DNA of 61,277 bases, counting the filler. It is 10 parts of 10 records of this genome, joined end to end, with 100 filler letters (N's around TTAATTAATTAA, not from the genome) between each part and the next. Parts side by side here need not be neighbours in the genome. Positions count along the whole stretch, not along the records: positions 1 to 13,585 come from SRR7504441_5976; 9 more parts are not named here. One strand, written 5' to 3'. The notes beneath the pieces are model-generated. The model was not told where the DNA came from, did not search any database, and worked only from the letters and a program-made list of their open reading frames with translations. Numbering within the stretch: the first letter of the stretch is position 1; each line of letters starts with the position of its first letter. Made by a program: the position numbers and the translations under genes. Below, in pieces: positions 272 through 57,478 of this stretch.

Positions 272-3043
272 CTATGAGCCTAAACTGAACCCACCCCCTG
301 TGAACCTTTGTGCCGATTGTTGCACCGTTCCGGTCCGCATCGGCTTACCCTCAAGCGAGCCACCTGCACACCCGCCAAGTCACACACACGCGCTTATTGC
401 TCGAATCACCGTTCTGGCCCTGCTGATCGCGCCGCTTTTGCTCAAAGTACTTCTTCTTTACGTCTTGCAGCTCGCGAGTGAGCCGCTCGATCTCAAATTT
501 GTACTCGTTTACCTGCGCTTGGTACATGTTGAGCTCCGCCGCCATCGCCTTCATCTGCTTGGTCTTCTCGCGCAGATTAGTCTGGTACACAGACAGCTGT
601 TCGGCCACCTCTGGGCCGGGCTGCCGGGCCAGGATATTCTTGAGCTCGACGTACAGCTTCTCCTTCTCCTGTATAAGCAAGTCCTTCTCGACAACCTCTT
701 CGGTCTTGGCGATGAGCCGCTTCTGCAGCGTCTGAATCTTCTGAATCATCTCATAAGTGTCGGGATCCGAGCCCTCCAGCTTGCGCCAGCGGTGCACATT
801 CATTGGGTTCTCGAGCTCCTCGCTCAGGGCCTTGACCTTGGTGCGCTCCTGGAGCAACTCCTTCTGAAGGTGGTACACCTCGTTCCTTAATCCGTCAATG
901 TTGGACACTGAAGACGAGAGCAGTTGCAGCTCGCGCTTCATGTCGTTGATCTTGAGCTTGAGCACTCGGATGTCCTCTATTCGCTCGCGGTACTGCACCT
1001 CGCCCTTCTTGAGTGTGCTCTGCTGGATCTTAATCTTCTCATACAGGAGTGCCAACTCATCGTTCCGCCGAATCAGCTGGGTGCCTAGAATGTCCCGCTC
1101 AGACACAACTTCATCCAGCTCCTTCTGCTGCCGCTGCATTTCGCGCTGGCCCTTCTCGATGATGGCCTCGAGCTTCTTGATCTCCTGGCGCAGACTCTTG
1201 CACGTGTTGTCTGATTCGCCCAGCTGGGTCCGAAGCTTCTGAATGTCTCCCTTCTGCAGCTCCCTCTCCTTTTCGAGCCTGGCATGCTCAAGGTGGACTG
1301 CCATCAGCGCTGAGTCCTTGGCCTGGATCTCCTCCTTGAGCTGAGAGATCTGGTGGTTCATAATTTTGAACTTTCGACGCATCTCCTGGATCTCATCCTG
1401 CGCCTCTATCAAGTTCTTTGAGTACAAATTCCGGTCTGAACGGACAGCCTCGTACAAGTTCTGCTGCTGCTTGAGTCGAGTCTCGGCCTCGTGGATCTTC
1501 TTGCGCAGGTTCACAATGGTCAGATCACGCAGCTTCACCTCCTCCTGGGCCTGCATGTACTTGGACATAGCCTCGGAGGCCTCGGCGCCGTACTTTTCTC
1601 GCTCTTTCTCAAGCTGGAAAATCATCTTGCGCTGCTTTTGGTTCTCGCCCTTGTACGACTGCATCTCCATCTCCATTGTCTTCTTACCCGACTCTTGCAT
1701 TTTGACTAGGTCCTGCTGGGTTCGGGTGTCGATCTTCTCCTTTTGCAGCTGCTTCGAAAGAATATCCCGCTGCCTCTTCAACTCCTCTATCTCCTTCTTG
1801 TCCTCGTCGTGCAGCCTCTTCTGCGTCTCCAGCTGCTTGGCCAGCCGGTCCAGGTCCTGCTTGAGCTGCTCCTTGTCCCTATTTGCATTAAACACTTGCT
1901 GCTCCACTTTAGCAACCTGTCGCCCGACCTCAGCCTCGCCAGCCACCCCACGCTCACCTTATGCTGCATCCGCTCGGCTGTCTTTTTGACTGCCTCAGCC
2001 TCCTGCCGGAGCTTCTCGATCTCGAACTCCTTTGTCTTAATCCCCTGCTGCCGAAGGTCGAGCTCCGCCTTCAGGTGCGTGCTCCCGTTGAGTGCGTCGT
2101 CCAAAAGCCCCTGCCCACCGATCACTTGGCCGCCTATGTGCTGATCGCGCCTTGGTACGCTGGTGGTCCTGGTTAAGCTTATCGAAGTCCTTGACCTGCT
2201 TCGAGATGAACAAATGCTGGTCCTTGACTCGAGTGTTAAGCTTTGTGATGTTCTCCTCAGCCTGCTGGAGCTGGCCTGTCTTTGATTTAATCTCCATCGT
2301 GTGGTCGTCCAGCATCCGCTTGAGCTCCTTCAGGTCCTTCTCGTGCCGCTCCTTCCGCCGGTGTTCCCGCTCCATCTCTAGCCGCCTGTTCAACTGCTGG
2401 TCCCTCAGCTCCTTAATCTCGTTGTCGATGTCCTCCTTCGACTTCTCCAGATTTCCAAGCTTATCCCGCAGGTACCGGGTCTCCTTGGTGAGCTCCTCCA
2501 CCTCGATCGCCTTCTGATCCCGCTCGAGCGCCAGTGCGTCCCTTTGCTCCTCCAGCTCGTGCACAGTCGACTCCTGGCCCAGCGACAGCCCAGCCCCCTG
2601 CTCGACCAGCTTGGACAAGTTGGAGATCTCCATCTTCAGCTGGTGGATGGTCTCCTTAGCCCGGACCTCCTTCTCGTGCGCCGCGTCCACCATCTTCCAC
2701 GCCTTCTCTATCTCCTTCTTAAGCGACGAAATCGTGTTCTGATCCTCCTGTGACAGCTTCAGCGCCGTCTGCACCTTGGCCGCATTGGCCACGATCTCGG
2801 CGTTGAGCTCGCGGCACTTCTTGATCAGCCGCTTCTCGCTCTCGTGCGACTTTTTGAGCGCCCGGTGCAGCTTCTCGTACTCGATCCGGAACCGCTCGAG
2901 GCTCTTGTCGCCCACCAGCTCTGTGAGCACCTGCCCAGCAGGGGTGGGCCAGGGCCTGGGCCAGGGCGCACCTCCTGGAAATCCTTCTCGAGCGCCTCGA
3001 AGGTGCTCGACTCGATCCCCAGGTCCGGCTTCTTGCCCTCCAT
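272..3043 (-). CDS. CFAP58: Cilia- and flagella-associated protein 58 (coiled-coil), 4 introns
   Basis: Three ORF pieces plus a short terminal exon splice into one frame: MEGKKPDLGIESSTFEALEKDFQE|VLTELVGDKSLERFRIEYEKLHRALKKSHESEKRL...ERDILGTQLIRRNDELALLYEKIKIQ...NPMNVHRWRKLEGSDP...QRFTGGGFSLGS*. These are characteristic CFAP58 motifs. Introns: 2931-2971 (41 nt, GT-AG), 2111-2150 (40 nt, GC-AG), 1917-1957 (41 nt), 364-409 (46 nt). Confidence 0.93.
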
Positions 3044-3182
3044 GGGCTGCGCCTGGCTGCTCACTCACGCCCCGCGCTGCAGTGCTGCCCGTGTAGGTAG
3101 GGCTAAATATAGGAGATTTCGACAAGAGAGAGAGTCTAGGACGAGCTGTTGGCGCTGCTCTGTCGGCGGCTCCCGGAGCGAA

Positions 3183-4481
3183 ATGCGGGGCTGCGTGCTG
3201 GCGCTGCTCCTGGCGGCGGCGGCCGGCTGGGAGGTGCACCGGGAGGCCCCGGCGGCGCTGGCCGCGTTCAACCGCCGGTACAAGAACGACAACGTCCGGC
3301 TCGACTGGCGGCCGGATCGGGGGTGGGTGCCCCGGGCTGTCCGCAAGATCCGGCCAGGCGGGTCCATCGTCGGGCTCCAGCCGGACGACGCCATCTCGGC
3401 GGCCGATGCCGAGCGGCAGCACCCAGCGTTCCGAGGGGGCAGCATGCGCCGGTATATCGGGGCGGGGGCCCCAGGCAGGGAGGAGTTCAGCTAGCTCGTG
3501 ATGGTGGCGGGGCTGATGGTGGCCGAGCGGCGGAAGGGGGCTAGCTCGGCGTGGTCGGCGTACATCGGGGTGCTGCCGGCGGTGGGGACTGACATGGGCA
3601 CGGCGGCCTACTACAGCCGAGGGGAGGCTAGCTGCCTGGGGCCGTGGGCGAGCCGGTATGCAGAGATAATGCAGGAGGACGAACAGCTGGCGCTGAGCGC
3701 CTGCCGCGTGATGCGCCGGGTGACCGAGCTGTGGCGCGGGCCGGAGCCGGTTTTGTTCAGCACGCTGCCCAGCCTGGCTGAGATGCGCTGGGCGCTGAGT
3801 ATCTTTCGGACGAGGTCGTTTCATATCCCAGAGGTAGGATTCTCGTTGGTGCCCTGGCTGGACATGCTGAATCACAACCCTCGTCGAGGGCTGCCGGCCG
3901 TCTGGCAGGCTGCAGGTAGGTTCATCTTCGCTTTGAGCCCGGTGGCTGTGGAGCCTGGGGGTGAAGTGTTTGACAGCTATGGAACCGCAATCTCAATAGA
4001 ACGACTGCTGGCCATGTACGGATTCGTCGATGACAGCCTGCCGCTGTATGCTGACGGCGGGCACCGGGCGGCGTTTGAGCGGGCTCATCTCGGGGGCAAG
4101 TGCGAGAGCGAGGCGGATGGCCCGCTTATATGTGGGGTTGACCTGCAGATCGTGGGCGTAGACAAGGAGTTGGTCGTTGACTGCACCAAGGGCAAGCCGA
4201 ATGGGTTGCTCGAGGCGTGTGCCGCCCAATTATTGCTCAATCAGAGCACAGGGGTTCACGCAAGCGCGCAGGTCGCCGAGTGGATTCGCAACCGCACCAT
4301 TGAGGCTGTCAAGCGGTTCGAGCGCCTCACAACTAGGGAGGATTGTCAAGCAACCTCGGGGCACTTTCCACTGATTCATCGAGCAAACGTTGCTACGCTA
4401 GCAGCTCTTCGATATTCGTTGAAAAAAGTGGCGAGTCCGCGGTCCGGCATGAAAAAAGTGCAAGCGGTGAATGTTCCTTGA
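3183..4481 (+). CDS. SET-domain (Rubisco-LSMT/SETD3-like) methyltransferase with N-terminal signal peptide; one in-frame TAG at 3492-3494
   Basis: Motifs: DRGWVPRAVRKIRPGG (SET-N), LMVAERRKGASSAWSAYIGVLP, WALSIFRTRSF, LVPWLDMLNH, GGEVFDSYG, LLAMYGFV. The 2844-3494 and 3498-4481 ORFs are in the same frame and separated only by TAG. Confidence 0.75.
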
Positions 4482-6194: not shown

Positions 6195-8308
6195 TCATGC
6201 TGCGATGCTGGGTTCTACATGAGATTGATCACCGTCCGGAATCGAACTTTCTTGCTTTTGTTGAGACTGTGACTCGAGCTCTGCGACGCGCTGGTGGTGC
6301 ATGTTCGTAAGTGCCCACCTTTCTCTCTCTCTGACTAACTGCCGTCTGTTGAACAACGTAAATGCAAACTCCCCATAGTCGCACCCTCTACCATCGCGAT
6401 CAAAGTGCATGAACACTAGCTGAAGCTCCTCCTTAGTCAATTCCATCCCAAGGCTTCGGAGTCCCTCAGCGAGCTCGTCAATTGTTACAACACCGTTCTT
6501 ATCAGTGTCCATCGATTCAAACACAGACTTCAGATCCAAATCCATGTCCTTTCTAGGGCCCTTTTTATGTTTTGAATATGCTGCTTCTTTGATCCTGTGA
6601 AGCACCTTGTAGGTTGCTGCCTGCCGCTCGCCAGCAGTCATTTTGAACTTGATTGGCGCCTGCTTGCAAACTCGCTCCCAACCACCCTCTGCATATCGCT
6701 GGATTGCTCTGACCAGCTCAGTGTAGTCGATTTCTCCGCTCTTGTCTTCATCAATCACGTCAAACACCAATTGCCATTGCTCCATATCCATATCGACGCC
6801 GAGCCGCTTGAAACCTGCACTGACCTCGTGGATATTCAAAGTGCCACTACAATTCTTATCCATCTCTCGAAAGGCGCTTATCATATTTGAATGGTACTTG
6901 GCAAGATACTGCTGAAGCTGCCGGAAAACAGCGTTGGGGGTTATCTCGCCTTTGTAGGTGGCTAGTGCCAGCTGCTCCTCATGCTTTATCTCTCGGGCAA
7001 GTCCTGGATGGATGTCATAATACTGCTGGACTGCCGTATGCTTAGCCCACGGACACCAAAGCGCATACTCTACCACTTTGTTGGCACCCTTGCCTTCAAC
7101 TACAGCCCAACGTCGGAGCACCTTCTGCAGGGACCACTTGTGCACCACTTCGTGGTGCTTTACAAACAAGTCCATGTAAGCTGTCATGCCAACATCGCTC
7201 TGTGTCCCGATTCCGAACCGGATCAAAACTGTCGAGTTGCCCATTTCATCTTGCGCTTCCACCTCCAGCTGACAGTTGGGCCAATCCTTGGACAAGCAAG
7301 TGCGAACTTCCATAACGATGTTTGGAAGAGACGTCCGTGGCACTTTTTCATACTGAGTCCGATTGCCCTTTGATTTGCCACACTTGCACCAGCTCGGTCG
7401 GTCGATTGGTTTATCTGGTGGCACCAGAGAAAGATCCCTCGGACACCATTTCTGCCCCTGCAGCCGATCAACCGACCAACTAGCCATAAAGGAATCGAAC
7501 CTGCTGTCTGGAGAAGGCCTCCCATTGCTCCCATTGGTAGTGAGTCTTGGCCCGATCGAACGGATTAGTCGGTTGCCGCACCCATCCACCTGACCAGGCC
7601 TCTCGGCCAGCAGATCCCAAGGGCACATACATGCCCCCACAGAAGCGCTCTGTGAAGCTGGCTGCTTGCTCGGGACATAGTCGAGCTTTGTAGGATGATA
7701 CTCCCCTGTCACAATCCACGGCTTTTGGCCAGCCAGCAGCCCCTGCCCCGACAAACGCTCGCCACAGGCCCATGCCGTCGCCACACCGCAGACGGCCTCT
7801 TGGTAGGGTCCCCGCCAGGTCCCAGCGCATACTCGGCCGGCCAGAAGCAACCCATGTTCTTGAACAGTGGCTCGGGCCTGGCCACTGACATGGGCTGCTT
7901 GCCAACTTTGCGCGCAGGCCCGTCAGCCCATGACGAAAACATGCCTTCTCCGAGGAGCGCCTTCATCTGGTGCACTGCCAGGTTAGAGCCGTGATACTCG
8001 TGCCGCCACAGACTGGACGGCCGGCACGGTCGGGGCAGGTGCAACGGCTGAGGAGGCCGCGGGGCGGCCAACACGGTGCTCTCTCGCCGGCGCTTGGGCG
8101 GCGCGGGCCGGAGCCGGTCGGCCAATACATTGCCGGGGCCCAGCACGTTCTTGCGCCGGCGGGGCGGGCGGGAGGCGGCTGCTGGCGGGAAGGTGGCCGT
8201 CGGGCGGGGTGAGCCGGCCTTCAGCAGCCAGTGGCAAGGGTCGCTCTCGCGGAGGAAGTAACGGAAGGCCAGGTCGGCGCCCCCGCTCACCGACGCGCTC
8301 AGGCTCAT
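6195..8308 (-). CDS. EF-hand calcium-binding protein (4 C-terminal EF-hands), 1 intron
   Basis: EF loops DKNCSGTLNIHE, DEDKSGEIDYTE, DTDKNGVVTIDE, DRDGRGCDYGE. A 44-nt GT-AG intron at 7743-7786 joins the 7709-8350 and 6195-7850 ORFs in frame. Confidence 0.75.
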
Positions 8309-8478
8309 GCTCTGCTGGACCGGTGGCTGCTGCCTCACGCCAAGACCCAAGGCGGGCTCGAGTGCCCCCTGTGACCCATTTAGCGCTGTAACGGAAGAAA
8401 CTGTAAGCTCGGACGATCACTGGATTGTCTGTCGCCCTGTGAAGGGCCGGTGGCTGTCGAGACGGGCGCGCGCGCCTG

Positions 8479-10011
8479 ATGGAGCCACCGCCGCCGCCTG
8501 TCGACACAGAGCCCTCAGCCAAGCGGCCTCGCATCGACGCTGAGCCGGCCGCGACGCCGGCCGAGACAGCGCCGAGCGCGGCTAGTCGGCCAGGTGACCG
8601 CTGCCGGCCGACGGTGCCCGACGGACGATTAGGCGAAGAGGCTGGGCCGTCGGCGGGCGGGCAGGCCGCTAATGAATACACGGGCCAACGTAGCAAGTGG
8701 CGAAAGTACGGGGAGAAACAGCCGGCCGGTGCGGCGCAGACGCAGGCCGGCCGGCCGACTGGGCGCAGGCAAGGAGGGCTGGCTTAAGACGTACTTAAAA
8801 TGCCAGTACCCGGGCTGCCCAGCCAAACGGACGATCACCCGGCTGCCGGGGCAGGCGCGGCCGGCTGGCCGAGCCGGGGGCCGAGCCGAGTGGGCAGGCG
8901 TTGGGAGAGGGCTCCGTGACGGACCTTGCGGAGCACAACCACACCGAGGAGCAGTACCAGCGGGCACTAGAAGATGGCACGATTAAGGAGGCGCTGCTAG
9001 CCACCCGACGACCGGCGGCCCGGTTGGACCGGGGTGCGAACGACACGCCTGACGCTGGAGGGATGGTGACACAGTGACTGCGCGGCGGGCTGACAGGGCT
9101 CGGCAGCAAGCGGCGGCGGCCACGGGGCTGTTGTCGGGCGGGGCGGCTGCGGCGCACGACGCGAGCAGGATGGGCGATGTAGTGCTGGTGGTGAAGGCGT
9201 GCGATAATGAGTGCAAAATATTCAAAGGTGCCGCCGCCTGCGATCGAGGCTGACAATGATGATGGGGACAGGGAAGGAGCAGATAGCCGCCATCGCTCAG
9301 GCGGCCGGGGCGCGGGTGATGAAGAACCTGTCGAAGAGCGTTACGCATGTGCTGGTGGCGGGGTGGCTAGGGACAGGGTTGAGTTGCTTCAGGTGACTTC
9401 GAATCATTTTAAGGATTCGACGCACCAGAATCCGTACGCGGGGTACACTATGGTAAACGAGGCATGGTTACGGTGCGCCCACTGGCGGCTGGACGGGGCC
9501 GAGCCCGGGCGTGCAGGGACATGGTTGGCGGTGTCGGGCAGGCCATGGCTGAGCAGGGGGTGATGGGGGGAAATGAGCAGATAGTGGCGTGGTGCCCGCT
9601 ATGCCACAAAGGCTTCACCACTTCTCAGGGCATGGGAGGTCCGCGCCCGCCCCGGCTGCCCGGCTGATTGCGCGTGCAGGGCATTATGGTCGGTGCAAGG
9701 CGTCGAGGGATGCGGAAGCTGCCCAGCCTGTAGCTCAGGCTGGCAGCAAGCCTGCCTCCTCCCGCTATGTGTGTCCGCATGGCTGGCTGGCCGAGGACTG
9801 CAACGAGTGCAAGATGAGCCGGGAAGACCTTGGCTTCCATCAGATCAACGTCGCAGTCGGTGTGTGTTCGCCGATGTCGTCCGGGCAGCCGGCGGCGGGG
9901 CCGGCTCCGGAGCCAACGGACTTGGGGAGCATGTTCACTGCCGACTTTTGCGCCCAGCTCAGTACTATGCTCGGGGAGGCGCCTATTGTCGTCGAGTCCG
10001 CTGGAACTTGA
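8479..10011 (+). CDS. WRKY-domain + BRCT-domain + C2HC zinc-finger protein, 7-8 introns
   Basis: Spliced product: SKWRKYGEKQPAGKEGWLKTYLKCQYPGCPAKRTITRLPGQALGEGSVTDLAEHNH (WRKY, C-X4-C-X24-H-X-H); KEQIAAIAQAAGARVMKNLSKSVTHVLVTSN...YTMVNEAWLRDMV (BRCT); CPLCHKGFTTSQGMGGHYGRC; CPHGWLAEDCNEC. Introns: 8729-8768, 8855-8897 (GC-AG), 9066-9106, 9228-9271, 9355-9392, 9473-9516, 9639-9679, and optionally 8594-8632. Confidence 0.8.
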
Positions 10012-13585: not shown

Positions 13586-13685
13586 NNNNNNNNNNNNNNN
13601 NNNNNNNNNNNNNNNNNNNNNNNNNNNNNTTAATTAATTAANNNNNNNNNNNNNNNNNNNNNNNNNNNNNNNNNNNNNNNNNNNN
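13586..13685. other. Artificial contig spacer
   Basis: N44-TTAATTAATTAA-N44 (stops in all six frames). Identical spacers at 20200-20299, 25304-25403, 28981-29080, 35746-35845, 44203-44302, 49794-49893, 52912-53011 and 57379-57478. Confidence 0.99.
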
Positions 13686-15229
13686 GCAGTTTGCTCGGTG
13701 GCGCCGCGACGGGGGGCGGCATAGTGTTCACAGCTGAGCCAGCTGCTGCACCCATGGGCAGCAAGCAGGAGCCGACCTCGCACTATCTCGTTATTGCGCC
13801 GCTGCCACGATCGATGGAACAGGATGGCGTGCCGCGGTACGCGCTGTATGAGGCGAAGATCGAATGCGAGGGCAAGCAGGATGTGCCTGGCCTCAAGCAC
13901 TATGTGGCAGCGGTGGTGCCCGCCACACAGCTCATGAATCTCACTATCCTTCACCGCTTTGTGCGAGTGGCGACGCAGCTTATTGGAGACGATGACGCGG
14001 TCCCGGCAGGATGGCGCAGCACCCCGGCGGTGCATGGGTGTGGGCATTGGGGCAAGGCACCTGACACGTTTGCAATCGACGTGGTGAGGGCATCAGAGAA
14101 GTTGGATGTGCTCACAAAGCTCGCCGCAGAGCATGGGTTTGCGCATCGAAGTGAGGAAGAAAGTGACTGGCACTACGCACGGCGTGCACAGCAATATCTC
14201 TGCTCAAGGGTCCGCTACGATGCAGCTGCGGCCGGCAGTGCGAATGCAGGCAAATCCCCCGCCCATTGCCTGAGCACAAGAGTTGCACATTGCGGCAACT
14301 TCTCGTCCGCCTATCGCGAGCTCCTGTCCTTTGGCGGCGTGCTGTGCCAAAGCGCGATCGGCGAGTGGATCTGCGAACGCGGCAAGTGCCACTGCGTGAA
14401 CGATGTCTTCCTTGAAGACTGCGGATGGATCCCTGTAGAACCTGCCGGCAATGGCGCCATCTACGACAAAAACCCGAGCGAGTGGGGGCCGCCCTCCTTT
14501 ATATCGCCATCCTTTGGAGTGGCTGACGACATGCTCATCTGTGACCAAGGATGGCGTGAATATCACACCGGCGCAGTGCACGCCAACGACTCGCGCATCC
14601 TGTTTGGTTCGAGCGCCGGCGAAAAGGCGGAGCCAGCGAGCGTGGCTGAAGCCATTTTCAAGCGTTTTGACGCGGACAATAGTGGCACGTTGGACAAATC
14701 GGAGGCCCGGCAGATGCTTGCGACGATGCTCGGAATTCACGAGCACTGGCCGGGCGCATCCGATGCTCTCAACGCCGCTGCAGCTGCCTTAGATCTCGAC
14801 CAGGATGGCACGATCTCTCGCGAGGAGCTACTTGCGGGCATCGAGAAAGGCGACAACGCCGCAGCGCACCTCCTCGCGTCTGCCTCGCAGCAGGTGAACA
14901 TGGGGCAGAATGTTGTCCAGCTGCGCCCACTCACACTGGAGGCGGGGTTGGGCGAGGGCGCGTGGATTCGGGATGGCGTGGTGTGTGGGACGGCTGGCAT
15001 GCCGATCCCTTGCGTGGGCCATGGCCTAATGGCCCAGTATGAGAGTTCCAATTTCACGGCGGGAAAGATGTGGCTAGAGGAGCTGCGCGCACGCCCTCAC
15101 GTGGTCGTCAATGAGAGCGACGCAAAGGGAGGATGTTGTGCAGCGCGTCAACCCATCGATGACGAGGAAGCAAGTGAATTGTTCGCCAAGATTGAGGCAC
15201 GCTGCAAGGAGCTGTACGCACGCCAGTGA
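13686..15229 (+). CDS. Transglutaminase-like domain + EF-hand pair protein (5'-truncated by contig edge, intronless)
   Basis: YLCSRVRYD...SPAHCLSTRVAHCGNFSSAYRELL (catalytic Cys region), HCVNDVFLEDCGWIPVEP (His / acidic residue); EF loops DADNSGTLDKSE and DLDQDGTISREE. Confidence 0.7.
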
Positions 15230-20097: not shown

Positions 20098-20299
20098 CAG
20101 CAGTCCGACTGGCGAGGAGTCGGGAGATGATGATTGCGGCAACGGACTTTTACCGCCGGCGGCCAGTAACCTGTGTCTCCAGTGGACGTCTTATGTGTTN
20201 NNNNNNNNNNNNNNNNNNNNNNNNNNNNNNNNNNNNNNNNNNNTTAATTAATTAANNNNNNNNNNNNNNNNNNNNNNNNNNNNNNNNNNNNNNNNNNNN

Positions 20300-20988
20300 C
20301 CTCCTCCTGACGCCTCGCCTCTGCTGCTGCTTCCTCCTGGCTGGCCAGTTGCTTCCGCTCGGCCGCTGCCTCCTGCTCCGCCCATCGTTTGGCCTCCCGC
20401 TGCCACTGGCCCTCCTCCCGGCCCGGCGTCTGGTCGGCCTGCTGCTGCTGCCGCCTCATCTTGCGCCGGGCTGATCCAGTTCGCATCGCCTGCCCGACCG
20501 TCGGCCGGCGGGGCACGCACACGCACCATCGGGGGGCTGGGCGCCCTTGGCCTCTCTTGGGCCTCGCGCCAGGCCTTCTCGGCCTGCGCCCCGTCAGACA
20601 ATCCGCCGCCCGGCCCACCTCCCCGAGCTGCAGCGCCGTGGCTAGATCCGGCAGGTTCTCCTTGGCCTCCGAGCCGAGCCGCCAGCCCACCGGTGAGGCT
20701 TCCTCCCACCGCGGGCGCAGGCTCGGCTTGCGGCCCGAATCGACCGGCGTGGCCCGCAGCAGCTGCGAGGCGGTCATGGTGGGCGAAGCCGCCTCTGGGG
20801 CCGGGCTCAGCCGCCGGGTGCTGGGCCCGCCGTGTGGGCTCTCCAGCGGCGGGGCGGCGCGACCGGCCTTGGCGGCCTGGCCAGCGGCTCGGGCCGGCCG
20901 GCGGGGTGGGGGAGACCCGCTCGAAGATGGTGCCGAACTTGGGCGGGCGCTGCCCTAGGCGCTGCCCGTTGAGCGGTGCGAGCACCAT
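20300..20988 (-). CDS. Hypothetical protein, 3'-truncated, probably intron-containing, coiled-coil start
   Basis: ATG at 20988; a frame change, probably via short introns, leads to an E/Q/A/R-rich coiled-coil segment (EAKRWAEQEAAAERKQLASQEE) at the contig edge. Confidence 0.45.
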
Positions 20989-38800: not shown

Positions 38801-40715
38801 GATGTAGCTGCATCCTCTGCAGTCTCTCCCCGAAACGATCGTGGCCCATGCAAGAACCTGACGAGCCCAGTACCTTCTGCAAGATCTTTGTAGACAGCAC
38901 CTTGCTGATACAGTTTGAGTGCAATGTCGCTTCGTCCTCGTTGCCTCCAAGAATTACTTCCAACAACCGGAGCGCGGCACTACGTTGCTCATCTGGGGAG
39001 TCGACAAAAATATCGACAATCCGGCAGCTTGCATGGTCTTGACTCTGAAGAAGCACATTGCGCATCTGAGCAAGGAAGCGAGGCTCATCTGCAAAATCAC
39101 ACTCTTCATCATACAGCAATTGTAAAGCGAGCTGCGCTGTTATGGCTCCAGGGCTCTTGCTGAAGCACGTGCCGTCATTGACAGTGCACCAGGCTGAATA
39201 GTGCGCCCCGCAGAATTCGGTACCGATAGGGGGAGGATCGCTCTTGCCATCCAACTGTAGAGGCCTTGCTGCAACCGCCGTTGAGTGAGTCAATAGAACT
39301 GAGTCGAACGAGGCCCGCACTGCCGGCCAGAAAGACTTACACCGCACCAAGGCGTCACCAAGTTGAGATGAAATCTCACAGCACAGGCGGATGGCGATAG
39401 TGAGTGCGGCTGGCAGCACCAAGTGTGCGGGCGAGACTTCGTGAGGCGATGGAGATCGGAAAGCCGACCGTGGCGATGCAGAAGAGCCATTCAACGAGCG
39501 GCGATGGCTGAAGGCAGGGTCGCCTTCAAATGACGAGAAGGACGGAGGCAAATAAGACAATGTCTGGGAAATGAAATTGAGGAGAGCTTCTCCCCAGGTC
39601 TCACGCAAATGACCGACAAGCTTCTCTGCGACCGGCTTGAGCTCCTTGTCATGGGTCTGAACAACTGCATAGAAGGCCCAGATCAGCTCAATTGTCTGCT
39701 GCTGACAAAAGTGCTCCTCTTGGAGCAGAAAGTGTTCAATATGCGGCTCACAGATGCCAAATAGCTCGACCAACATGGCTGCAGGCAGCTGGGGATCGGC
39801 CTGAACGAGGTCGATCACGATGTGCGCAAACCTCGTCTGCATGAAGGCGATATCTTCGAAATGGAGCGAGTCGGCATCCTGCAGCGTGAGCACCGTCTGA
39901 CAGTGGGCCAAGGCCTCGATTATGTCCTGATGGCTCGGGTGATCGTACGCAAGGTAGCAAGCGGCCCGCCAGGCCTCGCACCGCACATGCACATCGCACC
40001 ATATCAGCTCCTTCTCGACCGGGCCTGTGAGTGCCGGACTCGGCCGAACTCCGAGCAACAGCTCCAGCCTGGTCGGAGCCCCGGACTGCCGCCCCAACAG
40101 CCAGCCCCGCACCGCCTCACGCAGTGCACCGCAGCTCAGATCGGCCCGGCAGAACTCGGCGGCGATCGAGATCAGTGCGGCCCGGAAGGAATGGATTGAG
40201 AGCTGCAGGCTGCCCGGAACACCCCGTCCCCCCGCGCGGGGCGAGACGTGCTGGATGCAGCGGACCGCCACGGCCTCGAGCAGCAGGCTGTGGAAACCAG
40301 CCGCAAGGAACACGGCCGGCGCACCCGGCTTGGTGACAAGCTCGAGCACCGCCTGACCGGAGGCAGTGAGGCTGGCGCTGGCGGCCGGCCCGGCCGGCTG
40401 GAGCACCCCACGCTCCTGCCACCAGCCGGCCACCGCCCCGAGCAGCCCCCGGCCGATCTCAGGGCAGCGCTCCAGGTCCACCAACGGCAGCAGCTCGAAC
40501 GCTGCCGGCCCAGCGCTCTCGATCAGCGGCAGCAGCAGACGGGTGGCCCGTTCACCGTCGTCCACCGCCCCTGACAAGGCTTCCTCCAGCTCGGCCAGGC
40601 GCGGGTCCTGCCCAGCCGGTCGCTCCGGACCCAGCGAGCCGCTCCGGCCTCGGCGGTGCCGCCGGCGCATCGTGGGCAACGGCGCCGGAGGAGACAGCAG
40701 CCCGAGCTTGGACAT
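35846..40715 (-). CDS. Very large alpha-helical (ARM/HEAT-like) hypothetical protein, 3'-truncated, 2 introns
   Basis: The 713-aa, 778-aa and terminal ORFs join in frame via GT-AG introns at 38517-38577 (61 nt, containing TAGCCTTC repeats) and 36091-36145 (55 nt). Sequence is Leu-rich and helical. Confidence 0.7.
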
Positions 40716-40719
40716 TTCC

Positions 40720-40890
40720 TACACGGCCACCGGGGGGACCGGTTGGACGGTCAGCGACGGCTGGTGCACCGGCGACCCGTGTGCGGGCTGGACGGGGGTG
40801 ACCTGCGCCAGCAGCCGGGTGCAGCGCCTGCTCCTCAAACTGCAGCTGCAGCCGTTGAAAACATTGGGCCACGTCATCCTGGGCTGTTGA
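40720..40890 (+). pseudogene. Orphan fragment of an LRR N-terminal cap (LRRNT_2-type)
   Basis: YTATGGTGWTVSDGWCTGDPCAGWTGVTCASSRVQRLLL followed by a stop; no dedicated start, signal peptide or LRR array. Confidence 0.6.
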
Positions 40891-40913
40891 CCGGGTGCAT
40901 CACTCGACGTACA

Positions 40914-42395
40914 ATGGGCTGCGACGCCTCCGACGCGTCTGCACCCGAGGAATCGCGCATGCCCCGCGGGCTCCGGGAGATGGCGGCCCGTTGCTCCACA
41001 CGCCAGTTCGACCCGGAGCGGCCGGTGCCAGAGCCGATGGTCCGGGGCATCCTGGAAGCCGCCCGGAGCATCCCGAGCTCGGCCAACACTCAGCCCTGGA
41101 CCGTCCTGGTTGTCCAGGGCGCCGCGCGCGACCAGCTCTCCGCCGGGCTGCTCGCGTCCTTCGACGCCGGCAACGACGGCCAAGCTCAGTATGACCTCCT
41201 GCCCACAGAAATGACCCAGCGCATGCAGCAGGCAGTGGAAGAAGCCGGCCACAAGTACCGAGAGCACCTAAGCCTAGCCCCAGACGATGCCGCCGGTCGT
41301 CGTGCCGCGGACCGGCCGGAGCTCGAATTCGGAGGCGCCCCAGTCCACTTGATCCTGGCAGCGCCGCGTGAGCAGTGCGTGGTGGAGAAGGTGGACGGCG
41401 TCTTCCTCGACATGGGCTCGCTGCTAACTGCGATCCTGCTGGCCGCGCACTCGGATGGGCTTGGCGGCGCGCCTCTGTTCGCCCTGGCGCGGTACCACGC
41501 AGTCTGCCGCGAAGTGCTCGGCCAGCAGCTGCCAGACGATCTGTTGGTCATCTGCGGGGTGAGCCTAGGGTGGCCTGCCAGTGCCGCCCCGCCGGCCTTC
41601 CAGCCCAGCCGGCTTGCAGTGGACGCGACCACGCGCTGGATGAACTGCGACCAGGCCTGGCTCGGGCAATCTGCAGCCTGGAACGGCCCGTCTAGGGAAC
41701 ACAGCCTGATAGAGCTTATTCAGTCGAGACACTGCTCCCACCAGCTGGACACAAGCACGCCTGTCCCCAAGCAGCTGATTGATTCAATACTCGACGCGGC
41801 TCGGAGCGTCCCGTCGATCGGCGATGCCCAGCCTTGGAATGTGACTGTTATTCAGGGCGAGGCGAGAGATGCGCTGTCCACCAGAATGCTCGCAGAGTTT
41901 GATGCTGGGGTTGACGGGAAACAGACGTATAAGAAGTACTCCGCGGCCAACACCGCGCAGATGCAGAAGAGCAAAGACACCTACGGGTATGAACTTTACG
42001 AAGTGAAGCACGGCTTGGAGCGGGACGATAAGGCTGGCAGAAGGCTCAAATACCGCCCGAATTACGAATTCTGGGGAGCTCCCGTGTTGCTGCTGCTGAC
42101 TGTCCCGAAGAGTGCAGCTGGCGGTACATTCGTCGACATCGGCTCTTATATGTATGCGATTCTACTCGGAATGCACTCATTGGGCCTCGGCGGCAAACCG
42201 TTGGGCAGTGTGGCCAAATACACACACATTTGCAAGGAAGTGCTCGGGGAGGAGGCGATGCCTGAGGACGAGCACTTGGTCTGCGGGCTGTGCATCGGTT
42301 GGCCCGTCGAAGGCCGGGATCCATGTGAAACGCCGGACTTCTTTCCCAGTCGATTGACGTTGGAAGAGACCACCCGGTGGGCCACAGTGGTATGA
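40914..42395 (+). CDS. Tandem two-domain nitroreductase-family (FMN) protein, intronless
   Basis: Two homologous halves: RCSTRQF...PVP...ILEAARSIPSSANTQPW...FGGAPV...DMGS...LAAHSDGLG...CGVSLGWP...PSRL, and RHCSHQL...PVP...ILDAARSVPSIGDAQPW...FWGAPV...DIGS...LGMHSLGLG...CGLCIGWP...PSRL. Confidence 0.9.
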   Translation: MGCDASDASAPEESRMPRGLREMAARCSTRQFDPERPVPEPMVRGILEAARSIPSSANTQPWTVLVVQGAARDQLSAGLLASFDAGNDGQAQYDLLPTEMTQRMQQAVEEAGHKYREHLSLAPDDAAGRRAADRPELEFGGAPVHLILAAPREQCVVEKVDGVFLDMGSLLTAILLAAHSDGLGGAPLFALARYHAVCREVLGQQLPDDLLVICGVSLGWPASAAPPAFQPSRLAVDATTRWMNCDQAWLGQSAAWNGPSREHSLIELIQSRHCSHQLDTSTPVPKQLIDSILDAARSVPSIGDAQPWNVTVIQGEARDALSTRMLAEFDAGVDGKQTYKKYSAANTAQMQKSKDTYGYELYEVKHGLERDDKAGRRLKYRPNYEFWGAPVLLLLTVPKSAAGGTFVDIGSYMYAILLGMHSLGLGGKPLGSVAKYTHICKEVLGEEAMPEDEHLVCGLCIGWPVEGRDPCETPDFFPSRLTLEETTRWATVV

Positions 42396-44202: not shown

Positions 44203-44302
44203 NNNNNNNNNNNNNNNNNNNNNNNNNNNNNNNNNNNNNNNNNNNNTTAATTAATTAANNNNNNNNNNNNNNNNNNNNNNNNNNNNNNNNNNNNNNNNNN
44301 NN

Positions 44303-52911: not shown

Positions 52912-53072
52912 NNNNNNNNNNNNNNNNNNNNNNNNNNNNNNNNNNNNNNNNNNNNTTAATTAATTAANNNNNNNNNNNNNNNNNNNNNNNNNNNNNNNNN
53001 NNNNNNNNNNNACCACCCCCAACACTTCCACACTGCTGCCGCCCATCCCCAGCTCCAGAGCACGCAGCCGAC

Positions 53073-56763: not shown

Positions 56764-57478
56764 TGACAACTATAGTGCATGTTTTCAGTTACACGGATCA
56801 CTGATCATGATCAGTAAATAAAAGCACGTCAGTAGGTAGGGGTACATGTAGTGTTATCACTTGTTGGGAATCGGCCCATTTCTCCACTAAGACCTCATCA
56901 ATTGCTACTCAATTGCTATTAAATTGTTGCTGCAATTTTTTCTTCTTCTGCAGTGCATTTTCTATTGTTGCCGTCCTTTTTGTGGCATCCGAGAATCTGC
57001 CTTCGACTCGCGCACTTGATTTGCTCATACTCTTTACCATCATCACTGTGGGTCTTGCAAACTTTGATCTGTTCCCAATCAAAATAAGTTAGTGGATCAG
57101 CTGTTATGATACCGTTGCAAAGGCAACTTGCAATTTGTCTTTACATGCGTGGACAACATCAGAGTGTCTGCAAGTGGCGCGGCCAAAGCTTGTGGCGACC
57201 CAGCATTTGCAAGATCCGGGCTTGGGATATTTGACATCTCCAGCAGTTGTACTCATTTTGATAAGTGCTGGTGTCCTCTTGTCATCTTTAGAACCCTTCC
57301 CGCCCCGAATGAGGGATTTGAAATCACCTGTAAGGTGGGGGTGGCGGCTGGTTCGGACCACCTGCTGGCCTGGACTGGNNNNNNNNNNNNNNNNNNNNNN
57401 NNNNNNNNNNNNNNNNNNNNNNTTAATTAATTAANNNNNNNNNNNNNNNNNNNNNNNNNNNNNNNNNNNNNNNNNNNN

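Follow-up and report, generated by a model that had tools for sequence, protein, structure and literature searches.

The DNA analysed here, a window of 61,277 nucleotides that joins parts of ten genome records, carries a single protein-coding gene at positions 8479-10011 on the plus strand that combines a WRKY domain and a BRCT-like domain. The encoded protein also contains a C2HC finger, a zinc knuckle and a conserved C-terminal tail, and this domain order is conserved in a small family of proteins that includes one from Telonema subtile. The gene is expressed in the sea and is spliced at two junctions seen in marine RNA. The protein is probably a lineage-restricted nuclear regulator of about 400 residues that would bind DNA in a sequence-specific manner, and its gene would be a host gene present in single copy in a marine flagellate.

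Gene structure and transcription

The coding region begins with an ATG at 8479 and ends with a TGA at 10009-10011 (Table 1). A sequence-only reading of the window had proposed that removal of seven introns of 38-44 nucleotides yields one continuous frame. All seven are kept in the present model, and their removal leaves an open frame of 413 residues from 8479 to 10009-10011. An eighth, in-frame intron at 8594-8632 had been missed by that reading and was revealed by an RNA contig; once it is counted, the protein is 400 and not 413 residues long. This intron may be alternatively spliced, and its retention would keep the frame open and add 13 residues. Each of the eight introns is 38-44 nucleotides long. 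Their donors begin with G[T/C]G in seven cases and with GTCCGC in the remaining one, and their acceptors are CAG in seven cases and TAG in the other. Among the seven introns originally proposed, all end in CAG and six start with GT. Intron 8855-8897 is assigned a GC donor because there is no GT at the required place; the first six bases of this donor, GCGCGG, are similar to the GTGCGG with which neighbouring introns begin. Read from stop to stop, the region 8479-10011 falls into many short open reading frames (ORFs) across three frames, just as had been noticed for the ORF track. Introns of this size, GC-AG ones included, would lead ORF-based annotation to fragment genes across the genome.

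The chosen gene model is supported by codon usage, RNA joints, the alignment with relatives and the spacing of motifs. For codon log-odds derived from 12 long ORFs in other parts of the window, in all nine exons the model frame has the highest and the sole positive value. When four full-length relatives are aligned, the sequence around five of the eight junctions is conserved and free of gaps, and one more junction is accompanied by a one-residue gap. The remaining two are located in variable linkers, one of them being confirmed by RNA. Furthermore, the motif spacings in the protein become sensible only after splicing.

Ten public RNA runs, all of them marine metatranscriptomes, contain 5-11% of the sampled words. 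RNA contigs were mapped from four runs of four studies (polyA or oligo-dT marine libraries), and six contigs match the gene at an identity of at least 99%. These contigs confirm the splice joints over 9473-9516 and 8594-8632. Because these joints have GT..AG polarity, the transcript is placed on the plus strand.

Two minus-strand ORFs, 7983-8783 (266 residues) and 8795-9340 (181 residues), overlap the gene in antisense. Both are rich in Ala, Pro and Arg, as G+C-rich DNA would give; the G+C content is 68% around the gene and 65% in its coding sequence. The plus strand is favoured over these ORFs by codon log-odds and by the RNA joints with their GT..AG polarity. The hexamer TTGACC, the W-box core, occurs at 10003-10011 and shares bases with the gene's stop codon, probably by chance.

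Table 1. Coordinates of the WRKY-BRCT gene and its parts, numbered along the window
Feature	Position	Strand	Description and support
Whole coding region	8479-10011	+	9 exons, 400 residues; frame, codon log-odds, colinear relatives
Exons 1-5	8479-8593, 8633-8728, 8769-8854, 8898-9033, 9075-9227	+	
Exons 6-9	9272-9354, 9393-9472, 9517-9638, 9680-10011	+	
KRPR basic patch	8521-8532	+	KRQR in two relatives, close to the N-terminus
Intron	8594-8632	+	39 nucleotides, in-frame GT..AG; skipped in one RNA contig of run X4
Classical WRKY domain	8698-8942	+	residues 61-114, three exons; WRKYGEK, then C-X4-C-X24-H-X-H
Intron	8729-8768	+	40 nucleotides; lies between the WRKYGEK strand and the zinc-finger part; no alignment gap around the junction, where four relatives are identical in 8 of 10 columns
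Intron	8855-8897	+	43 nucleotides, GC-AG, within the WRKY domain; junction gap-free against relatives
Intron	9034-9074	+	41 nucleotides, variable linker; least supported junction; frame and codon log-odds only
BRCT-like domain	9176-9470	+	residues ~179-249, three exons; Pfam matches of exon and relatives
Intron	9228-9271	+	44 nucleotides, within the BRCT region; frame logic; one-residue alignment gap at the junction
Intron	9355-9392	+	38 nucleotides, within the BRCT region; junction gap-free against relatives
Intron	9473-9516	+	44 nucleotides, after the BRCT region; skipped exactly by one X2 RNA contig; junction gap-free against relatives
C2HC finger	9593-9696	+	residues 276-296, C-X2-C-X12-H-X3-C, C2H2-like
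Intron	9639-9679	+	41 nucleotides, within the C2HC finger; 10 of 10 junction columns identical in relatives; an X2 RNA contig starts at 9680
C-X-H-X6-C-X2-C knuckle	9772-9810	+	residues 322-334; invariant in all relatives covering the region
C-terminal acidic-hydrophobic motif, one Cys conserved	9919-9972	+	conserved alignment columns

Conserved family and domain composition

An HMMER search with the last exon over 1.84 billion representatives (E <= 0.001) returned five matches, three of which were kept: P0002 (544 residues), P0004 (335 residues, truncated at the N-terminus) and P0003 (85 residues). The other two, P0001 and P0005, were rejected as repeat-driven false matches (23 and 8 stretches; RESP18 and SprB repeats). 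When P0002 was used as the query, five clusters were obtained among 5.8 billion proteins (Logan, EukProt, JGI/IMG, ENA). None of the five bears a functional name, and one bears the EukProt label Telonema subtile. P0002 carries the WRKY domain, the BRCT-like domain, the same finger, the knuckle and the tail. In an alignment of six family sequences, matches to BRCT families at E <= 0.01 are found in five, the sixth being the C-terminal fragment of 85 residues, and WRKY is detected in four; sequences without a match are fragments in which the region is absent.

The spliced protein of the window is 43-52% identical to its relatives, which are 47-77% identical among themselves. Its alignments with P0008 (residues 44-389, 320.5 bits) and with P0007, the Telonema protein (residues 36-390, 309.6 bits), each run in one stretch. 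At 43-52% identity overall, hardly any change is seen in the BRCT core, the C2HC finger or the knuckle. The genes of the relatives are uninterrupted ORFs on contigs of 1.5-2.0 kb (for example, L001 54-1751 and L002 78-1757, on contigs of ~1.9 kb), so that a single reading frame contains both WRKY and BRCT. Thus, the combination of the two domains that had been proposed from the window alone is kept in contiguous proteins. The coding G+C content of the relatives is 57%; that of the window gene, which has eight introns, is 65%. The contigs of the relatives may be transcripts; there is no poly(A) at the contig ends. The relatives look like single orthologs. Word-index searches for longer proteins with the last exon and the exon stretch 9077-9226 found none. 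A metagenome scan with the last exon gave 598 pattern matches, none of which was confirmed, and a scan with the family alignment gave only two loci, both close to P0006. A whole-protein Atlas match to an insect ZAD family was disregarded at a score of only 0.76.

All four motifs that had been read from the DNA, namely WRKYGEK with C-X4-C-X24-H-X-H, a BRCT-like block, a C2HC finger and a CPHG-C-C knuckle, are present with the spacing then given. The heptad WRKYGEK occupies residues 61-67 (8698-8718), occurs once within the 61-kb window, and is invariant in the four relatives covering the region. The Pfam and PDB scans of the window gene used single exons, and the spliced protein was compared with the relatives only. 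In the profile check that the sequence-only reading had proposed, the exon stretch 8771-8854 (28 residues) reaches 17.9 bits against the Pfam WRKY family, whose cut-off is 21 (E 0.0036, profile positions 21-40 of 59). The ortholog P0002 matches the same family at 42.5 bits (E 7.8e-11). Against PDB sequences, the top four of the eight matches of this exon stretch are the domains of AtWRKY33 and AtWRKY1 (E 0.035-0.17). Thirteen of the 14 PDB matches of the family profile are plant WRKY domains, the best at E 2.3e-7. A model of P0008 has three strands in the WRKY part, against the four or five of the WRKY fold, at a predicted local distance difference test score (pLDDT) of 59-74, and its top six Foldseek matches are WRKY domains, although weak ones (E 0.014-0.23). 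Both the heptad and the spacing of the zinc ligands are those of the classical WRKY family as it is defined by Babu et al. (2006, PMC1702500) and in Pfam PF03106.

The BRCT assignment is based on Pfam scores at the cut-offs together with the invariance of the domain core. The exon stretch 9274-9354 (27 residues) matches PTCB-BRCT at 22.1 bits against a cut-off of 22 (E 1.5e-4) and BRCT at 19.5 bits against a cut-off of 21.3 (E 0.0011). P0004 scores 26.1 and 22.1 bits for the two families, both over the cut-off, and P0002 scores 21.3 bits for BRCT, equal to the cut-off of 21.3, and 21.3 bits for PTCB-BRCT against 22. The gathering cut-off of PF00533 and PF12738 is thus reached marginally. The BRCT fold runs beta-alpha-beta-beta-alpha-beta-alpha and has a conserved Trp in its last helix; a Trp is present and invariant in the family, and the predicted order of elements is compatible with BRCT at a pLDDT of only 40-59. 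A language-model search for look-alikes of this part places BRCT clusters first with a score of 0.86, which is taken as a lead only. The BRCT domain of RFC1 appears in Foldseek at rank 38 (E 2). The phosphopeptide pocket (Ser/Thr-Gly after strand 1 and Lys in helix 2), which characterises the phospho-reader subclass alone, is not kept, with Lys-Ala and Ser at these places; the comparison was made by eye at positions assigned from what we take to be the corresponding residues of BRCA1, and it is given low weight.

We read the CCHC stretch as a C2H2-like finger with Cys as its last ligand, and no C2H2 membership is claimed. The C2H2 definition (C-X2-4-C-X12-H-X3-5-H) has His at this position, and scores against the Pfam C2H2 families are 14-16 bits, under the cut-offs of 25-27. 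The finger of P0002 has 16 weak matches in the PDB (E 0.009-7); most of these, SUPERMAN among them, are DNA-binding fingers of the classical C2H2 type. The finger is modelled as beta-beta-alpha at a pLDDT of 51-59. A Rad18-type ubiquitin-binding finger (UBZ4) was also considered for this stretch and was dropped, as none of the 16 PDB matches was named as a UBZ-containing repair protein. The knuckle had no Pfam or PDB match in searches with the exon and the family profile. Five other exon pieces of the gene gave no match in the Pfam scan.

Predicted mode of action and competing explanations

The N-terminal classical WRKY zinc finger is predicted to read DNA at a target motif, and the downstream C2H2-like C2HC finger would probably help it to do so. 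The single divergent BRCT-like domain located between them would act as a module for docking of other proteins or for self-association. The conserved zinc knuckle and the acidic-hydrophobic tail would form the effector or output end of the protein, and the C-terminal motif of the tail is a possible activation or docking motif. The KRPR patch near the N-terminus is a possible nuclear localisation signal, and the predicted location of the protein is nuclear. Rap1-type factors offer a parallel: they are non-enzymatic nuclear proteins in which a single BRCT domain is combined with a sequence-specific DNA-binding domain and serves as an interaction module, not as a phosphopeptide reader. However, Rap1-type factors have a Myb-type DNA-binding domain and an N-terminal BRCT domain, and they have no sequence kinship to the window protein beyond the BRCT fold class.

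Several observations weigh against this regulator. The BRCT scores sit at the Pfam cut-offs, and the matches are confined to the middle of the profile. The exon stretch 9274-9354 has no match among PDB sequences, and the sole BRCT match of the family profile in the PDB is terminal deoxynucleotidyltransferase at E 0.34. AlphaFold models built from alignments of six and nine rows are poor, their mean pLDDT being 34 and 43; the BRCT part lies at 40-59, only the WRKY part reaches about 60-75, and Foldseek gave no match at E <= 0.001. Most plant WRKY domains have Q at the position where the heptad WRKYGEK has E. Because the heptad carries E instead of the usual Q, a W-box target cannot be assumed. 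With regard to the gene model, a walk through alternative sets of GT-AG introns of 30-60 nucleotides reaching the stop found more than 5,000 others, a lower bound, that also keep the frame open. The open frame by itself is therefore weak evidence. The junction 9033/9075 has no RNA cover, and the alignment with the relatives is gapped there. The sequence-only reading had proposed to confirm the junctions by RNA sequencing, and this was achieved for the two joints described above; nothing was obtained over 8748-9387 in the four mapped runs, a gap that carries no information on expression there, and no RNA of the same organism bridges WRKY and BRCT.

Another explanation is that the protein is a regulator coupled to DNA damage or to checkpoints, in which the BRCT domain would dock phosphorylated checkpoint or repair proteins and thereby tie WRKY-directed transcription or recruitment to damage signalling. 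BRCT domains are a typical feature of DNA-damage proteins, the one found here is strongly conserved, and its best match of known structure, although weak, is the terminal deoxynucleotidyltransferase mentioned above. However, the domain is single and does not form a tandem pair, and other residues take the places of the Ser/Thr-Gly after strand 1 and of the helix-2 Lys, as judged by eye against positions presumed from BRCA1. Furthermore, no repair genes adjoin the locus, its neighbours being a minus-strand gene for an EF-hand protein and a long plus-strand ORF for a coiled-coil protein, and the C2HC finger is C2H2-like, with none of its 16 weak matches being a ubiquitin-binding repair finger. 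A damage-coupled regulator is considered unlikely.

A BRCT-gated WRKY factor can also be envisaged, in which a plant-type WRKY finger was captured by deep-branching, Telonemia-like marine flagellates and the BRCT domain wires it to phospho-signalling. The donor of the finger would perhaps have been green-algal prey or their viruses. We regard this scenario as quite improbable. If it were true, checkpoint or stress kinases would be coupled directly to transcription, and the protein would be an independently invented counterpart of the master regulators with which plants and animals respond to damage.

The sequence-only reading had also raised a domesticated, transposase-derived WRKY fold, that is, a member of the wider WRKY-GCM1 superfamily and not a classical WRKY factor. 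WRKY-GCM1 domains head MULE transposases and FAR1/FLYWCH-type derivatives and have repeatedly given rise to host factors, and a fungal protein of this kind carries a fused zinc knuckle, according to Babu et al. (2006, PMC1702500). These heads belong to the same fold superfamily and have a history of zinc-knuckle fusion (PMC1702500). In contrast to them, the window protein has the classical signature, no insert between its Cys pair and no transposase domain. P0002 matches the Pfam WRKY family and no transposase family, and no transposase domain is found by Pfam in the 400 residues, either in the exons or in the relatives. No terminal inverted repeats flank the gene; the matches seen are short, GC-rich and attributed to chance. 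In addition, the WRKY motif occurs just once in the window, and the relatives look like single orthologs. This origin is regarded as very improbable. Finally, an artefact of the gene model, with WRKY and BRCT stemming from two adjacent genes or the locus being a pseudogene, could be suspected from the RNA gap over 8748-9387, the many alternative intron sets and the unsupported junction 9033/9075, but it is hardly credible, as four relatives have both domains in one contiguous ORF on their 1.5-2.0-kb contigs, the spliced protein is aligned with relatives in one stretch, every exon is coding-biased in the model frame, and the conserved residues are intact.

Relation to known WRKY proteins, and the host

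In the chimeras of plant R proteins and WRKY, of which RRS1 is an example, the WRKY domain is thought to serve as a decoy. The RRS1 WRKY domain is among the PDB and Foldseek matches obtained here. However, the partners in the RRS1-type chimeras are NLR-type, whereas those in the window protein are a BRCT domain and a C2HC finger, and there is no sign of a decoy role in the window protein. What both have in common is the fusion of WRKY to signalling or interaction domains (PMC4350883).

The two introns within the WRKY domain of the window gene are not at the sites that we take to be those of the plant PR and VQR introns. Classical WRKY factors of plants and green algae (PF03106; AtWRKY1, 2, 4 and 33) have in common with the window protein the WRKYGxK strand, the C-X4-C...H-X-H site and the domain length. 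In contrast to them, the window protein has E in the heptad and a His dyad 24 residues past the second Cys, adds a BRCT domain, a C2HC finger and a knuckle, and belongs to a host of a marine heterotrophic-flagellate lineage. In most classical members, WRKY is the sole globular domain (PMC1702500). The PR and VQR introns of plants are named in PMC4350883.

WRKY proteins are treated as essentially plant proteins, and their few non-plant cases have served as an argument for lateral transfers in ancient times; the patchy distribution outside plants is explained by lateral transfer in Rinerson et al. (2015, PMC4350883). The non-plant proteins described there are likewise classical WRKY proteins outside land plants. 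However, telonemids are not on the list given there, the lineage of the window is marine plankton and not of soil or gut, and a BRCT domain is present here. A conserved WRKY family in Telonema-related marine flagellates thus adds a lineage and a habitat that are absent from such accounts (PMC4350883). It also provides a concrete protein for examining the working of a WRKY finger outside plants and the role of a lone, divergent BRCT domain in a DNA-binding factor.

The sequence-only reading knew of no described WRKY-BRCT architecture, and in the literature searched no fusion of WRKY and BRCT was found to be described, as judged by titles and abstracts, with supplementary files and InterPro architectures being outside the scope. 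The term BRCT does not occur in Babu et al. (2006, PMC1702500). Within the same literature, WRKY was not found linked to telonemids, and nothing relevant on WRKY in other protist genomes was found among the papers listed.

The host builds flagella, as had been proposed: the window carries a homolog of CFAP58 (cilia and flagella associated protein 58) at 351-3992 on the minus strand. Its central coiled coil is matched at E 1.8e-95 on the ORF 354-1958, and the homolog continues in the ORF 2037-3992. Runs of N are present at about 13640-13690, 20250-20300, 44255-44300, 52968-53010 and 57431-57475, and several ORFs stop there. A single plus-strand ORF at 40575-42395 contains two nitroreductase-family stretches (Pfam E 5.9e-41) and represents a tandem-duplicated nitroreductase.

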